Shown one piece after another: positions 3,154 to 8,314 of a stretch of DNA of 64,000 nucleotides (positions within the stretch are counted from its first letter, which is position 1; each line of letters begins with the position of its first letter). This DNA is from an uncultured Thermodesulfobacteriota bacterium (GTDB lineage: Bacteria; Desulfobacterota; Desulfomonilia; UBA1062), in NCBI GenBank assembly GCA_942491525.1, contig CALOBW010000030.1, positions 291,029 to 355,028 on the forward strand. Direction: 5' to 3'. The position numbers were made by a program, and so were the translations under genes. The notes under the pieces were generated by a model. It was not told the origin of the DNA, made no database searches, and saw nothing but the letters and a program-made list of their open reading frames with translations.

Positions 3154-3519
3154 TTAGTGATGAGAACAGTCGTGGTGGTCGCAGCCGCCGCCCTGATCAG
3201 TCAGTGAACCGTCGAGCCAGCTCTGGGCGACCTCGCGGGCGATACCCTGACAACCGCGCACAACCTGGATGCCGTTGTTCAGCAGCATGTTGGCTGCGCC
3301 CTGGCCCATGTTGCCGCCCAGCAGGACGCTCACGCCCATCTGGGAGAGGGTCGGAATGATGTTGGACTTGCAGCCGCAGCCCGGCGGCGGGGTCAGCTGT
3401 TCCTCGGCGATAATTGTACCATCCTCAACGGTAACGGTATAGATGGTGAAGGCTTCACAGTGACCAAAGTGGGAATCAACGGCTCCGTCGCGGGAGGGAA
3501 TGGCAATTTTCATGATCAA
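3154..3519 (-). CDS. NifX/NifB-like dinitrogenase FeMo-cofactor-family (DUF-type) small protein
   Basis: This 121-aa protein has MKIAIPSRDG...VDSHFGHCEAFTIYTV and GGNMGQGAANML motifs typical of the NifB/NifX/NafY-like fold common in anaerobes. Confidence 0.65.
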   Translation of the reverse strand: MIMKIAIPSRDGAVDSHFGHCEAFTIYTVTVEDGTIIAEEQLTPPPGCGCKSNIIPTLSQMGVSVLLGGNMGQGAANMLLNNGIQVVRGCQGIAREVAQSWLDGSLTDQGGGCDHHDCSHH

Positions 3520-3579
3520 CTCCTTATTAGTTAGTGAAGACTATCTACACCTGCCAGGAGCGGAATTCAATGCATATAA

Positions 3580-3680
3580 CTATGGGGCCGACTCGCCATT
3601 ACCAGCCGACCCCGATGAAGGCCCCGTCTTGCGTCTTTCGCAATCACGCGGGCCGCGTCAACCAGCTGGTGCGGCCCGTC
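3580..3680 (-). ncRNA. Conserved structured 3'-UTR element, copy 1, downstream of lipoprotein gene 3690..5126
   Basis: On the minus-sense transcript this gives hairpin GGGCCGC-accagcugguugac-GCGGCCC (plus-strand 3650-3677) and hairpin UUGCG-aaaga-CGCAA (3629-3643). The conserved block GACGCAAGACGGGGCC and a distal GGGGCC...GGCCCC pairing (3584-3589 / 3620-3625) follow. All of this recurs with compensatory changes downstream of the paralog (5440..5535). Confidence 0.5.
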
Positions 3681-3689
3681 AGCAGTAGA

Positions 3690-5126
3690 TTAGAATGGGC
3701 CACCCACATGCCACAGGAGCAGACAGGTGGTCATGGGGATGCCGGCAACAAAGTAGTCATAACCGGTATCCAGGGCCATCAGGATATCGATGCCATCCAG
3801 CACTTCAGCAACTTCAGCAGGCATCTCAACCTCTATCCAGCCCAGCTCGGCAAAACCGAGAGCCAGCATCTCAATAATCTCAAAGGTCTCTTCATCATAC
3901 TCTTCAACATTATTGAAATCGATCTTGATCAGCTTGCCGCTCAGCTCACTGTAGGTGAAGGTCAGGGCATGAATCGGAATCCAGACGATCTCGGGCTCAT
4001 AGATCAGAGTTTCAACTTCAGGACGGATCAGCATGGCATCTTCCATAATGGTCATAACACGCACACCATCTTCAAAGACGTTGGTTGTCCGTGCCACCGG
4101 CATGGCGTCATCCAGACAGGGGCTACCACAAGGGCTAAAATGCCCGCCACCCATCAGCAGCGACATGGTCCTGGTCAGCAGACGGCCAGCCTCATCGCGA
4201 ACATATTCATAGATAGTTTTGGGTATCCAGAGAACCGGCGCATCCGGTCCATCGAGCGGGGGATGCGGAATGTGGAATATGGTGCGGGTCTTCTCCTCAC
4301 AGTACTCAGTCTCTGCGCGGTAGACCGGGAATCTGGGCCAGAGTGAACGGTTGAGCGAGGTTTCCTGCACAACCAAACGACCCTTGTCATCATACTCATT
4401 GATCAGAATGTAGTAACCGATCTCAGCCCAGTGGGAAATTGCGGGGTCGAAATTCTCAAAGATGATACCGTCAATATCACCGGCATCATTATACGAGAAG
4501 ACCAGACGGAAAAGCATGCTGTGCAGATTGTGAGGATGGGGTCCCCAATATCCCTCAGCATCAAAGGCCATCTCCTCCTGGCCGCTTTCAACAAAGAGCG
4601 GGGTCAGATCAAAGGTGTATGAGATGAGCCGACCATCATAGCCCATCAATACCTCTCCGGCGGGAACAGGCTCGTCAAAAACCGTCTCAGCAATCGTATG
4701 ATGGATAATGTGCATCAGTATTTCACGAATGCACTCCTGATCATTAAGAACTTCGATAGATCCGACTGTCAGAATTCCCTCTGTCTCGAGAGTTGTCTCC
4801 ATCGTCAAGGTTGCATAGAGCGTTGAACCCAGGAGAACCTCTTCTGGCTCGATTACCTCCAGAACTTCAACTTCAGGATCTACAGGCGCTGGTCCATAGT
4901 CATACCGGCCGATTGAGACGGTCTCTAGAACCATGACACTCTCTAAAACTTCTTCGGGAATAACAGGCTCCTCAGGTTGAGGGCACTCAGGACAAACATC
5001 TTCACCGGCACCTTGACTTTGAGCTGCTAAAGCAAAAGGAATGTAATTATCTTCTTCTTTAGCGCAACCAGATAGCGCTAAGGCTGTGAGGAAGATATAT
5101 AGCAAGGCTGTTGTAAATCGTTTCAT
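3690..5126 (-). CDS. Lipoprotein, paralog A of a tandem pair (unknown function)
   Basis: An AAGGAGG RBS precedes MKRFTTALLYIFLTALALSGC (lipobox LSGC). An acidic low-complexity linker (EED..GAGEDV..PEEPVIPEEV) is followed by a globular region sharing blocks with paralog B (EVLMGYDGRLISYTFDL, ARTTNVFEDGVR, IKIDFNNVEEYDE). Confidence 0.7.
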   Translation of the reverse strand: MKRFTTALLYIFLTALALSGCAKEEDNYIPFALAAQSQGAGEDVCPECPQPEEPVIPEEVLESVMVLETVSIGRYDYGPAPVDPEVEVLEVIEPEEVLLGSTLYATLTMETTLETEGILTVGSIEVLNDQECIREILMHIIHHTIAETVFDEPVPAGEVLMGYDGRLISYTFDLTPLFVESGQEEMAFDAEGYWGPHPHNLHSMLFRLVFSYNDAGDIDGIIFENFDPAISHWAEIGYYILINEYDDKGRLVVQETSLNRSLWPRFPVYRAETEYCEEKTRTIFHIPHPPLDGPDAPVLWIPKTIYEYVRDEAGRLLTRTMSLLMGGGHFSPCGSPCLDDAMPVARTTNVFEDGVRVMTIMEDAMLIRPEVETLIYEPEIVWIPIHALTFTYSELSGKLIKIDFNNVEEYDEETFEIIEMLALGFAELGWIEVEMPAEVAEVLDGIDILMALDTGYDYFVAGIPMTTCLLLWHVGGPF

Positions 5127-5439
5127 GGCGTACCTCCTTGGTGCTACTTATCCTCTTTTCTTGCTTGCGGGGCCTCCTTTAACCGGAGAAAGTTAAGCCT
5201 GACCCGGCAGATGGCAAGGCCAGGAATGCTCTTTTCTGACATTATTCAAAACTACTTTTCAAGGGCGTGAAAAACCGAGTTATTTAAGACAAACTTTTTT
5301 AAGTTTTGGTCTAAAAATGTCCCTTATGATGAAACCCAAAACATAATTAAATCACAACACCCCTGACCCCATTTTTCACATCCCGAGACGGAAAGAAAAA
5401 CTTTGCCATTGGGAAGTCATTTGGGAATAGCTAGATATA

Positions 5440-5535
5440 ACTTGGGGCCAGCAGTTTGAATAGCTGACCCCGTCATATGGCCCCGTCTTGCGTCCTACGC
5501 AACGGACAGAGGCAACCAGCTGTCTCTGCCCCTCA
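5440..5535 (-). ncRNA. Conserved structured 3'-UTR element, copy 2, downstream of lipoprotein gene 5544..6899
   Basis: The architecture matches copy 1: hairpin GGCAGAG-acagcugguugc-CUCUGUC (plus-strand 5505-5530, with a G.U wobble only in the minus sense), hairpin UUGCG-uagga-CGCAA (5488-5502), and the conserved GACGCAAGACGGGGCC plus distal GGGGCC/GGCCCC (5444-5449 / 5479-5484). Confidence 0.5.
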
Positions 5536-5543
5536 TCATCAGA

Positions 5544-6899
5544 TCATAGTCCGATATGACCCAGCAGCCATGAATTAACAACGGGCTGGCTGGCTGCAAA
5601 GTAGTCAAAGGCACCATCGAGCGCCACCAGGATATCAACGTTCTCAATGAAATCGAGCGCATCAACAGGAACTTCCATCTCAACCCAGATCAACTCGGCA
5701 AAACCAAGTGGCAAAAGTTCGGTGGGCTCGAGGGTCATCTCGTCAAATGCAGTCACATTGTTGAAGTCGATCCTGATCAGTTTAGCGGTGATTTCATCAT
5801 AGCTGTAAGTCAGAACATGGAACGGTATCCAAAGGATCTCAATTTCCATTACCTCTTCTACCATAACCTCATGCTCAACTGCCTTGCTCATAATGGTCGA
5901 AATGCGTACACCATCTTCAAACGTATTGGTGGTACGCGCAACCGGGCTGAGCATGCTCAGCTCACAAACCATAGGCTCTTCACCCACCGGACCGGACAGT
6001 AGCGACATGGTCCTGGTCAGCAGACGGCCGGAAACATCGTGAGTATAGTCATAGACAACCTTCCTAGGTCCAGGACCGCCGGCACGCACATAGACCACGC
6101 GCGACTTATCTTCACAGTAGCCGAAGTGAGCTGTATAGACATCCAGGGTCTCGATCTTGATCAGATTAACCTCAACAGCATTGACCTTGACAGTTTTGGA
6201 CATGATCAAAGCCTGCTGCATCAAGATACGGCCCTCGCCTTCTTCCTCATAGGTGTTGATCAACATGTAGGTGAGCAGCTCCGACCAGTTGGATGTCCGC
6301 GGTACAAAGTGGTCAACGATTACGGAGTTGATATGACCCATGGCGTCATAGGTGAAGCGTAGCCGGAAAATGGCACTGAAGAGATCTTCATCTTCTTCAG
6401 CCACATTCAAAGGCCCATTCCAGAAGGCGGTAAGGTCAACGGTATATGAAATCAGGCGACCATCATAGCCCATATGAACTTCACCGGCGGGGATGGGACC
6501 TTCAAGCTCGGTCTCTTCCGGAAGCATGAGACCCAGCAGGCTTAGAACGATTTCATCGGCCAACTCACTGATCTCCAACATGCCAATTGTGCGGATAACA
6601 CCGGCACCAAAGGTGGTTTCAAGTCCGAGAGTCGCAATAATTGTCTCGAGAGGATCCTCACCATAGATGCCAAAATTGATGGCATCCAACACCAAAGCCG
6701 GCTCGGTCACCTCTTCATCGTCACCATCACCATTGTCACCTCCGCCATTCAGATCATCGCCGCCGACATCTTCACCGCCGGCACCTAAGCCCGATAGGGC
6801 AATAGCGTATGGGATATAGTTATCTTCTTCTCTGGTACAACCCGATAGAGCCAGGCTTACTAGGAAGAGTACCACCAAGATTGTTGTAAATCTTTTCAT
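5544..6899 (-). CDS. Lipoprotein, paralog B of the tandem pair (unknown function)
   Basis: An AAGGAGG RBS precedes MKRFTTILVVLFLVSLALSGC, followed by a Gly/Asp-rich acidic linker (GGEDVGGDDLNGGGDNGDGDDEE). Conserved blocks are shared with paralog A (EVHMGYDGRLISYTVDL, ARTTNTFEDGVR, IRIDFNNVTAFDE). Confidence 0.7.
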   Translation of the reverse strand: MKRFTTILVVLFLVSLALSGCTREEDNYIPYAIALSGLGAGGEDVGGDDLNGGGDNGDGDDEEVTEPALVLDAINFGIYGEDPLETIIATLGLETTFGAGVIRTIGMLEISELADEIVLSLLGLMLPEETELEGPIPAGEVHMGYDGRLISYTVDLTAFWNGPLNVAEEDEDLFSAIFRLRFTYDAMGHINSVIVDHFVPRTSNWSELLTYMLINTYEEEGEGRILMQQALIMSKTVKVNAVEVNLIKIETLDVYTAHFGYCEDKSRVVYVRAGGPGPRKVVYDYTHDVSGRLLTRTMSLLSGPVGEEPMVCELSMLSPVARTTNTFEDGVRISTIMSKAVEHEVMVEEVMEIEILWIPFHVLTYSYDEITAKLIRIDFNNVTAFDEMTLEPTELLPLGFAELIWVEMEVPVDALDFIENVDILVALDGAFDYFAASQPVVNSWLLGHIGL

Positions 6900-7183
6900 G
6901 TCGTACCTCCTTGCTGCTAGTTGTAACTCACATCTTGTTCACGGGGCCTCCTTTGAACGGTTTATTGTAAGGACGTAAAGCCTGATAACAAGGGCTTTGC
7001 CGGCATTTTTCCAGAATCGAAACCGATGCAATGCAAGGGTTCAATAACAAGAGTTATTCAAGGCAAACTTTTAATATGTTTTTTCAACAAAAATCATTAA
7101 TGTCGCAAACCAGAGCATAATAAATCAATTTCTTGCCGCCCACGACTCAAAACAAGGGCAGACCAACCTGCAAAGAGAGAAAA

Positions 7184-8314
7184 CTATTTCATACCGAAAA
7201 GCGGCTGCAGCCAGGTAATCCGGCGCACAAAAAACTCAAAGATCAGCATGATCAAAACAAATGCCACGACCGCCAGCAGGATGAATTTAAACCCGGGATC
7301 CAGCGGCCAGCTGCGCATCACAAACCCCAGACCGACAATCACGGTCTGATGCAGAATATAAAACGGCAGCACGGCCCGCGAGGCATACTCCAGCACCCCA
7401 TTACGACCCTTCAGGTAGCGGCTGCCATAGCCCAAAATCGCCACCAGCCAGCACCAGGAATTAAAAGGCAGCAGGCTGCCCCAGAAGAGATAACTGATTC
7501 CGGCGCCCAACTGGCGGTATATACCACTCAAATAGAGCGCCAGAGCCAGACAGGTTATCAGCAGAGCCAGCCCGGCGGCCAGCCGGCGTTCCGACTCCAT
7601 GGCCAGCCTGAAGCGCATATCCAGCCCGACAACGTAGCCGTTGATAAAAAAACCCAGATAGACCGGCAGGGCCCAGCCGCCGAAATCCCTGATCCCCACG
7701 CCCCCCGGCTGCAGGTCAACCAGCAGCTGCACCGCGATCAGAGGCAGCGCCATGATCAAAACCCCGCCGCGGTAGCCGCTGAAATCTGCCAGCGCATCAA
7801 TCCGATAGGTGCGCTGCTGCAGACTCAAAAAGAACGGCAACAGCAGAAGGCTGAATATAAACAGAACCTCCAGATACCAGAGGTGCAGCCCCATCCAGGC
7901 AAAATTGCCGCCAAAAGCGTAAAACCCTTGAAAGTAGTGCGGATAGAATGACCAGAATGAACCGCTGAACTCTCCGCCAACCACCCGCTCGATCCAGACC
8001 TGCAGCGGCGCAATCACCACCAGTGAGCCGAACACAAGCGGCACCAGCAGCCGGCGGCTGCGTTCGATGATAAACCCGCGCAGGCTGCGTTTCTGAAGCG
8101 AAGCGGAGATGCTGATGGCCGAGAGCACAAAAAAGAGCGGCATAATCCACTGGGCCAGCACCATCACCATGATTGTTGCCCAGCCAGTCAGCTGATCATT
8201 CTTGACGTGCCAACCCTCATGGTTGAAAAATCGGGCACAGTGGAAAACAAAGATTACAAGCATGGCCATGACCCTCAGCCAGTCAACATCGTTACGTCTC
8301 GATAAATCTTGCAT
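7184..8314 (-). CDS. Acyltransferase family 3 (OafA/YrhL-like) membrane O-acyltransferase
   Basis: This 376-aa polytopic protein starts DVDWLRVMAMLVIFVFHCARFF, the acyltransferase_3 signature, and has about 10 predicted TM helices. Confidence 0.75.
   Translation of the reverse strand: MQDLSRRNDVDWLRVMAMLVIFVFHCARFFNHEGWHVKNDQLTGWATIMVMVLAQWIMPLFFVLSAISISASLQKRSLRGFIIERSRRLLVPLVFGSLVVIAPLQVWIERVVGGEFSGSFWSFYPHYFQGFYAFGGNFAWMGLHLWYLEVLFIFSLLLLPFFLSLQQRTYRIDALADFSGYRGGVLIMALPLIAVQLLVDLQPGGVGIRDFGGWALPVYLGFFINGYVVGLDMRFRLAMESERRLAAGLALLITCLALALYLSGIYRQLGAGISYLFWGSLLPFNSWCWLVAILGYGSRYLKGRNGVLEYASRAVLPFYILHQTVIVGLGFVMRSWPLDPGFKFILLAVVAFVLIMLIFEFFVRRITWLQPLFGMK

Follow-up and report, generated by a model that had tools for sequence, protein, structure and literature searches.

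Introduction

Paralogous families of surface lipoproteins with conserved 5′ regions are found in Mycoplasma (vlp/vsa) and Borrelia (vsp). Leaders regulated by CsrA, such as that of Escherichia coli glgC, contain two GGA motifs, one of which is located in the Shine–Dalgarno (SD) sequence. The stabilising SD sequence (STAB-SD) of Bacillus thuringiensis cryIIIA reportedly reads GAAAGGAGG. According to a review, a strong SD sequence without an initiation codon in the 5′ leader can stabilise the whole mRNA (PMC3997798, citing Agaisse and Lereclus, 1996). In icaR of Staphylococcus aureus, the motif UCCCCUG in the 3′ untranslated region (UTR) masks the real SD sequence in the 5′ UTR (PMC3868564). The regions upstream of two tandem lipoprotein genes, paralog 1 (3690–5126) and paralog 2 (5544–6899), were analysed here in a 64-kb stretch of DNA from an uncultured Thermodesulfobacteriota bacterium (contig CALOBW010000030.1, positions 291,029 to 355,028; hereafter, the window). 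Coordinates are plus-strand positions in the window, motifs are read in transcript (minus-strand) sense, and every gene and element of this locus placed below by its coordinates lies on the minus strand.

The locus resembles the vlp/vsa and vsp families in that the promoter, leader and signal-peptide portions of the tandem paralogs are much more conserved than the mature protein. It differs from them because neither an invertible element nor a homopolymer tract nor a recombination site was observed, and because the conservation is arranged in blocks and is not uniform. The likeness to CsrA leaders consists of two GGA motifs, one in the SD sequence, at a bridging distance. However, no conserved hairpin presents the upstream GGA here, the motifs are full SD heptamers and not ANGGA loops, and no sign of CsrA was found in the 64 kb. 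The likeness to cryIIIA is a perfect SD-like sequence in the 5′ UTR (here AAAGGAGG) that has no conserved initiation codon and stands far upstream of the real ribosome-binding site (RBS), near the 5′ end of the mRNA (here, the predicted end). Unlike cryIIIA, the host is Gram-negative-like (resistance–nodulation–division efflux, lipobox lipoproteins), and the extra SD is fused to a conserved GGCCCCG, which STAB-SD lacks. Moreover, the 5′ end is a predicted one here, and the stabilising effect is putative. The locus shares with icaR a conserved structured 3′ UTR with a short C/G-rich motif complementary to an SD-like region of the same mRNA; here, however, the complementarity is to GGCCCCG beside an upstream pseudo-SD and is, by statistics, chance-like in paralog 1 and borderline in paralog 2.

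The sequences suggest that each paralog carries an old, selectively maintained expression module consisting of a nearby promoter and a short 5′ UTR, a reading that is preferred tentatively, with confidence a little short of even. Most of the supposed long leader is most likely a DNA-level control region, not transcribed RNA. Behind it are four observations: the blocks are conserved, the duplication is old, an RNA-structure signal is lacking, and the promoter candidates coincide in position; from these we infer the transcription start site (TSS), the function of the extra SD and the binding of a regulator. The locus is more economically read as a real, fairly ordinary expression module composed of known kinds of regulatory sequence.

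Results and Discussion

Ordered Blocks Shared by the Two Upstream Regions

The upstream regions of both paralogs share, in the order 5′ to 3′, a 22-nt box (block B), CCCTTG (block C), a small hairpin (hairpin D), CCG.T.AAAGGAGGCCCCG (block E) and the block of the true SD. Block B is located at 5277–5298 in paralog 1 (AAAAGTTTGTCTTAAATAACTC), at about −95 to −115 from the predicted TSS, and at 7051–7072 in paralog 2 (AAAAGTTTGCCTTGAATAACTC). Its pattern, AAAAGTTTG(T/C)CTT(A/G)AATAACTC (AAAAGTTTGyCTTrAATAACTC), is identical at 20 of 22 positions between the paralogs, and the block is probably a regulator-binding box. In paralog 2, the right half of block B and the sequence that follows it form the palindrome AATAAC-TCTT-GTTATT. 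Two further features were observed at this site. A near-perfect palindrome, TTGAATAAC-TCTT-GTTATTGAA, extends block B of paralog 2 (7051–7090), of which paralog 1 has the left half only, and AAAC-N8-GTTT overlaps the left edge of block B in both copies.

Block C (5260–5265 in paralog 1 and 7034–7039 in paralog 2) reads CCCTTG in both copies and is complementary to CAAGG of the SD. Block E is located at 5168–5186 in paralog 1 (CCGGTTAAAGGAGGCCCCG) and at 6942–6960 in paralog 2 (CCGTTCAAAGGAGGCCCCG); 17 of its 19 positions are identical, and the exact 13-mer occurs just twice in the window. In paralog 1, it comprises an SD-like motif (5173–5180) without a start codon, followed by GGCCCCG. The true SD, AAGGAGG, is found at 5133–5139 in paralog 1, within a conserved block at 5128–5145, and at 6906–6912 in paralog 2, within a conserved block at 6901–6918. 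These SD blocks, AGCA.CAAGGAGGTACG, are identical at 16 of 18 positions, and the two AAGGAGG motifs of each leader are 40–41 nt apart.

The alignment confirmed the ordered blocks and the two AAGGAGG-like motifs per leader that a preliminary description of this DNA had located upstream of both paralogs. Its further statement that conservation reaches far beyond the RBS was also borne out. Local alignment of the whole leaders gave z = 15.4 against dinucleotide shuffles; when only the sequence upstream of the hairpin was aligned, z was 11.2, and the reverse-complement control gave z = 0.7. The main blocks on its list were recovered, the most distal one only marginally. This block A, located at 5330–5352 in paralog 1 (ATTTAATTATGTTTTGGGTTTCA) and at 7103–7126 in paralog 2 (ATTTATTATGCTCTGGTTTGCGAC), marks the distal limit of the duplicated unit and is weakly conserved; its shared pattern, TTG..ATTTAATTATG.T.TGG.TT, is marginal alone (z = 2.2). 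Blocks B and E had no other occurrence in the window, and two matches were seen in 0 of 100 shuffles. No third copy in the window was returned by nhmmer with a profile built from the leaders, and block B, searched as a DNA pattern, was absent from metagenome contigs.

Age of the Duplication

The overall identity of the non-coding upstream regions was 61% (135/223), and that of third codon positions was 41%. Four-fold sites in identical residues matched in 49 of 97 cases. The spacers between the blocks were 38–40% identical, whereas the blocks were 89–91% identical. Synonymous sites are therefore near saturation, and the duplication is not recent. The very recent duplication that had been named as a refuting scenario is ruled out by these third-position and four-fold values and by spacers of about 40% identity. 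As judged from the aligned sequences, the upstream blocks are kept by selection and not by recency. The protein identity, put earlier at about 45%, was corrected to 40% (BLASTP) or 47% (MAFFT alignment). In the first 30 codons, the paralogs were 73% identical in amino acids and 60% identical at third positions.

Candidate Core Promoters and the Proximal Region

Every combination of −35 and −10 hexamers was scored for each leader independently. The top-scoring sigma70-type site of paralog 1 (5190–5217; 9.7 bits) consists of TTGCCA (5212–5217), a 16-nt spacer and TAACTT (5190–5195). That of paralog 2 (6964–6991; 10.6 bits), which was also returned by a consensus scan, consists of TTGTTA (6986–6991), a 16-nt spacer and TACAAT (6964–6969). 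The two sites occupy the same columns of the alignment (204 and 226), share their spacer length and lie at an equal distance, 62–63 nt, before ATG. Seven hexamer positions were identical in both copies, namely TTG and A6 of the −35 hexamer and T1, A2 and T6 of the −10 hexamer, which are the most critical ones. The five less critical positions all differed between the copies.

The predicted TSSs are at about 5183 (paralog 1) and about 6957 (paralog 2), 3–8 nt before AAAGGAGG. The real 5′ UTR, as predicted from the position of the promoter, is probably about 57 nt long. Folding of the proximal 60 nt gave z = +1.9 and +0.65 against shuffles, and the probability of the first SD being unpaired in the short transcript was 0.69–0.76. 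The GC content fell to 27–32% at 5230–5350 and 7030–7120, against about 50% around these troughs, which is typical of promoter-upstream DNA.

Other promoter types were considered. Against the sigma54 consensus TGGCAC-N5-TTGC with its GG-N10-GC core, the best matches in the leaders scored 0.73, with a wrong −12 element or spacing, and none in the window reached 0.88 or more. Promoters of the extracytoplasmic function (ECF), sigma28, sigma32 and Bacteroidetes types in blocks B and C were rejected by eye, as no −10 element was consistent in both copies. An invertible promoter was also rejected on the lack of an invertible element, homopolymer tract or recombination site.

The SD without a Start Codon

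The two AAGGAGG motifs of block E (5173–5179 and 6947–6953) were the only intergenic ones in the whole window that do not precede a gene. The heptamer is the same as that used as a real SD by these and other genes of the window. In paralog 1, no ATG, GTG or TTG was found 3–13 nt downstream of the extra SD. In paralog 2, a GTG 4 nt downstream opens an open reading frame (ORF) of 4 codons only, which is not conserved. An upstream ORF or leader peptide was rejected, since the small ORFs differ in start codon and lack an SD, and substitutions are spread 5/7/7 over the codon positions. An antisense small ORF was rejected as well because the frames differ between the two copies. By analogy with the described systems, the extra SD most likely serves to stabilise the mRNA in the manner of STAB-SD, as a standby site for ribosomes, or both.

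Proposed Module

In the proposed module, an AT-rich promoter-upstream region would hold the 22-bp block B together with the smaller boxes A and C, and these three boxes may be binding sites of a shared transcription factor or UP-like elements. The candidate sigma70-type core promoter, TTGnnA-16-TAnnnT, would end 62–63 nt upstream of ATG. The 5′ UTR of about 57 nt, which is purine-rich and predicted to be essentially unstructured, would start a few nucleotides before AAAGGAGG, continue with GGCCCCG and end in the genuine SD, 6 nt before ATG. The start-less SD would hold a 30S subunit near the 5′ end, and it would thereby support high expression of the lipoprotein.

If this reading is true, the locus is a case of clean footprinting between paralogs, in which an ancient tandem duplication erased the neutral similarity and exposed every functional non-coding element. 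Besides a structured 3′ UTR, these would be a regulator box, a core promoter and a 5′-proximal ribosome-binding stabiliser. An element of the STAB-SD kind, so far known chiefly from Bacillus, would then be extended to a poorly sampled lineage of the Gram-negative type. In practice the gain is modest: exact coordinates are provided for mutagenesis and for TSS mapping, and one start codon is corrected.

Weighing a Transcribed Leader and the Other Readings

Several findings weigh against the short-UTR reading, and confidence in it stays below even mainly because of hairpin D. This hairpin is located at 5203–5224 in paralog 1 (CCTGGC-CTTGCCATCT-GCCGGG, with a 6-bp stem and the predicted −35 in its loop) and at 6977–6998 in paralog 2 (AAAGCC-CTTGTTATCA-GGCTTT). 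According to RNAalifold and a scan of our own, 4 of its 6 pairs are changed on both sides, and it encloses the predicted −35. Compensatory changes are the mark that selection leaves on hairpins transcribed into RNA, and the TSS would then have to lie upstream of 5224 and 6998. One G·U pair in the hairpin of paralog 1 likewise favours RNA of the minus strand. The covariation was matched by 0 of 2000 local column shuffles and by 3 of 300 any-range shuffles; these tests rest on two sequences and are not a true phylogenetic test. A two-sequence permutation gave 34 of 500, the floor of such a test being about 6%. The promoter scores were reached by 16% (paralog 1) and 12% (paralog 2) of shuffles, and the scoring model is E. 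coli-like, the host being of a poorly sampled lineage. Taken singly, the scores are thus unremarkable; the argument for the promoter is that the positions coincide and that the critical bases are the conserved ones. Furthermore, micro gene conversion may have inflated the identity of the short non-coding blocks. The coding sequences share an exact identity of 29 nt (4159–4187 in paralog 1 and about 6001–6029 in paralog 2, encoding GRLLTRTMSL) that was reached in 0 of 1000 synonymous-codon resamplings, and which may stem from micro gene conversion or from a signal at the nucleotide level within the coding sequence. For a short block, therefore, identity alone is no proof of function.

A long leader of about 190–250 nt, transcribed from a distal promoter near block A and acting as a cis-regulatory RNA, is on the whole unlikely. 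In such a leader, access to the SD would be tuned by hairpin D and by two anti-SD-like CCUUG motifs, or the blocks would dock a small RNA or a protein acting in trans. Its main support is hairpin D, in which 4 of 6 pairs are compensatory and the loop, CUUGnnAUC, is conserved, and the G·U pair of paralog 1 favours the minus strand. CCUUG is present twice in both leaders and is complementary to CAAGG of the SD, and the loop CUUG(C/U) can pair with a downstream (G/A)CAAG with one compensatory change. The pair-by-pair homology of hairpin D is weakened, however, by an alternative alignment in which TCAGGCTT is shared at a 9-nt offset. Folding of the 234-nt leaders did not exceed that of shuffles in stability (z = +1.0 in each case), and no conserved global leader fold was found, covariation being present in only one local helix. 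Sequestration of the SD by the two upstream CCUUG motifs was rejected in silico, since the native upstream sequence did not mask the true SD more than shuffled upstream sequence did (fractions 0.71 and 0.81). The Rfam and riboswitch scan of both leaders that had been suggested gave no family match even at E ≤ 10. Across the window, no family of Rfam (15) reached its gathering score, and the sole match in a leader (6961–7002) was a chance-level small RNA (16.6 bits against a gathering score of 45). A weak, conserved promoter candidate does exist at block A (GTGATT/TTGATT-18-CATCAT/GACATT); its 4.3 and 7.4 bits compare with 9.7 and 10.6 bits for the proximal sites, and the region has a GC content of 27–32%. 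The preliminary description had left the choice between a cis-regulatory RNA and an extended operator/promoter: for most of the 230–290 nt, promoter or operator is the better supported of the two, and the findings weigh against a long structured RNA. Hairpin D of paralog 2 was also flagged as resembling a terminator on the plus strand. That assignment was rejected because the U-tract is 5–7 nt off the stem, the hairpin of paralog 1 has an A·C mismatch when read in that orientation, and the plus strand has neither a promoter nor a gene from which transcription would run towards the hairpin.

Alternatively, the blocks might have no function beyond the RBS and owe their identity to gene conversion in short tracts from one tandem copy to the other. 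The 29-nt identity in the coding sequences does imply some homogenisation or nucleotide-level constraint between the copies. The blocks, however, are short (exact runs of 9–13 nt), numerous and collinear, and they are split by spacers of about 40% identity. They also match interpretable signals (the SD, the perfect pseudo-SD and the key promoter positions), and conversion cannot create the compensatory stem changes of hairpin D and of the 3′ elements described below. This explanation is highly improbable. The idea that a repressor dimer of the CsrA/RsmA type bridges the SD and the GGA motif 40–41 nt upstream is only slightly less improbable. It agrees with the two conserved A(A)GGA motifs at that distance, one of them overlapping the SD, and with the upstream motif of paralog 2 lying in the loop of a 5-bp hairpin. 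The spacing is within the range for dual-site CsrA binding. Any strong SD contains AGGA, however, so that the motif match is unspecific, and paralog 1 does not retain the hairpin that would present the upstream GGA. No csrA gene was found within the 64-kb window, which is uninformative on the rest of the genome.

Structured 3′ Elements

The coding sequences of both paralogs are followed by structured elements of about 125–130 nt. The one after paralog 1 (3561–3692) consists of three hairpins and the linker GACGGGGCC, with a folding z of −2.1; the one after paralog 2 (5421–5546) has a folding z of −2.6 and stands directly upstream of the paralog 1 control region. With a mean column identity of 77%, these 3′ elements are more conserved than the 5′ regions. 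They have compensatory changes in their stems, a conserved loop, CAGCUGGUUG, and a tail, AGUUAUAU, and they lack a U-tract. No further copy was found in the window by profile or pattern; a 16-mer occurs exactly twice, and two matches were seen in 1 of 100 shuffles. In an attC site of an integron cassette, the complementary cores R″ (RYYYAAC) and R′ (GTTRRRY) border an imperfect palindrome behind the ORF. This assignment was rejected, as the elements end in AGTTATAT but no complementary ATATAAC is present near the stop codon on the same strand.

A 5′–3′ UTR interaction like that of icaR would have GGCCCCG of the leader pair with the CGGGGCC linker and couple the stability or processing of the mRNA to the decoy SD. 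The partner would be in the same mRNA or, in the case of paralog 1, in the adjacent upstream element that belongs to paralog 2. Neither motif varies between the copies, and the complementarity spans 10 bp with one G·U for paralog 1 and 8 bp for paralog 2. Both 3′ elements are genuinely structured as RNA, the centroid fold of paralog 1 leaves the linker unpaired, and pairing between a 3′ UTR and an SD has an experimental precedent in icaR (PMC3868564). Against these points, the duplex energies are not clearly better than those of shuffled leaders: the fraction was 0.22 for the paralog 1 leader with its own 3′ element (L1–T1), which is chance-like, and 0.047 for that of paralog 2 (L2–T2), which is borderline. 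Thus, of the GGCCCC/GGGGCC pairing suggested earlier, the complementarity is real, and an excess over chance is not found for paralog 1 and is borderline for paralog 2. By our estimate, two conserved stretches of about 70 and about 80 nt would share a complementary 7-mer by chance in about 1/4 of cases. The 3′ element's own GGCCCC arm competes for the G-runs, and the pairing covers the upstream pseudo-SD and not the real SD, unlike in icaR. An interaction of this kind is very unlikely.

Hairpin D and the structured 3′ UTR nevertheless keep the more novel, RNA-level reading alive at a low probability. Together, hairpin D, the start-less SD with its GGCCCCG and the three hairpins of the 3′ element could make up a private circuit of control at the RNA level, which is distinctly unlikely. 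It could combine a decoy SD with 5′–3′ UTR pairing, possibly across the junction between paralog 2 and paralog 1, and could have been kept since the ancient duplication. If true, the circuit, found in an uncultivated lineage and in an orphan family of YD-repeat-like lipoproteins, would represent a new class of regulatory motif embedded in mRNA.

Gene Context and Protein Family

Paralog 1 encodes 478 amino acids with the lipobox LSGC and has AAGGAGG 6 nt before its ATG; paralog 2 encodes 451 amino acids and corresponds to the database entry P0002. Both are taken from the ORF list, and MKRFTT...LALSGC is the signal and lipobox sequence of both. The database protein for paralog 1 (P0001, 414 amino acids) begins at Met65, that is, 64 residues late, and lacks the signal peptide and lipobox (4935–5126). 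The start at 5126 is supported as the correct one by its perfect SD and by sequence conservation with paralog 2.

The upstream neighbour of paralog 2 is a gene with the Pfam domain Acyl_transf_3 (7184–8314). A terminator scan found its canonical terminator hairpin and T-run at 7158–7171, so that the paralog 2 control region is confined to about 6900–7157. The control region of paralog 1 lies within 5127–5543, the distal part of this interval being the 3′ element of paralog 2. The other flank holds a gene with a Nitro_FeMo-Co domain (Pfam; 3154–3519) and then a serine dehydratase gene. The closest relative of this dehydratase (Bacterium UASB14) is merely 66% identical, and the source lineage is therefore poorly sampled. 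The matches were spread over many phyla and offered no usable synteny.

Searches of Pfam with both lipoproteins found no family beyond a sub-threshold match to RHS_repeat (E = 0.023). The AlphaFold model is all-beta, with a moderate pLDDT of 62, and its best fold matches are Rhs/YD-repeat shells. The model suggests that the lipoprotein may have Rhs/YD-like beta repeats, which is context and not evidence on the leader. Weak YD/RHS-repeat signals were observed in the family, comprising RHS_repeat, a hidden Markov model (HMM) match to a 2237-residue repeat protein and the Rhs-shell fold matches. The family is an orphan one, with 4 proteins among 5.8 billion in word-index protein searches; the members P0003 and P0004 have about 32% protein identity. 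When 1.84 billion representatives were searched exhaustively with an HMM, the only additions were the remote P0005–P0007. Protein-profile scans of genome, metagenome and viral contigs found no family member, and one Logan contig (L001) was identical to the window.

The remote homologue P0005 is encoded at locus L002 of the metagenome-assembled genome GCA_964456565.1. Its gene is preceded by a textbook sigma54 promoter, TGGCACacaagTTGCT, located 45 nt before ATG with a score of 0.98. The features noted in L002, at 3276–3291, 4946–4975 and 4999–5106, include this promoter, a canonical terminator and, after the gene, another lipoprotein gene. Since P0005 has a sigma54 promoter, a single SD and a canonical terminator, the upstream architecture of paralogs 1 and 2 is specific to the close family. 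The sequence GATATAAC precedes both lipoprotein genes in L002.

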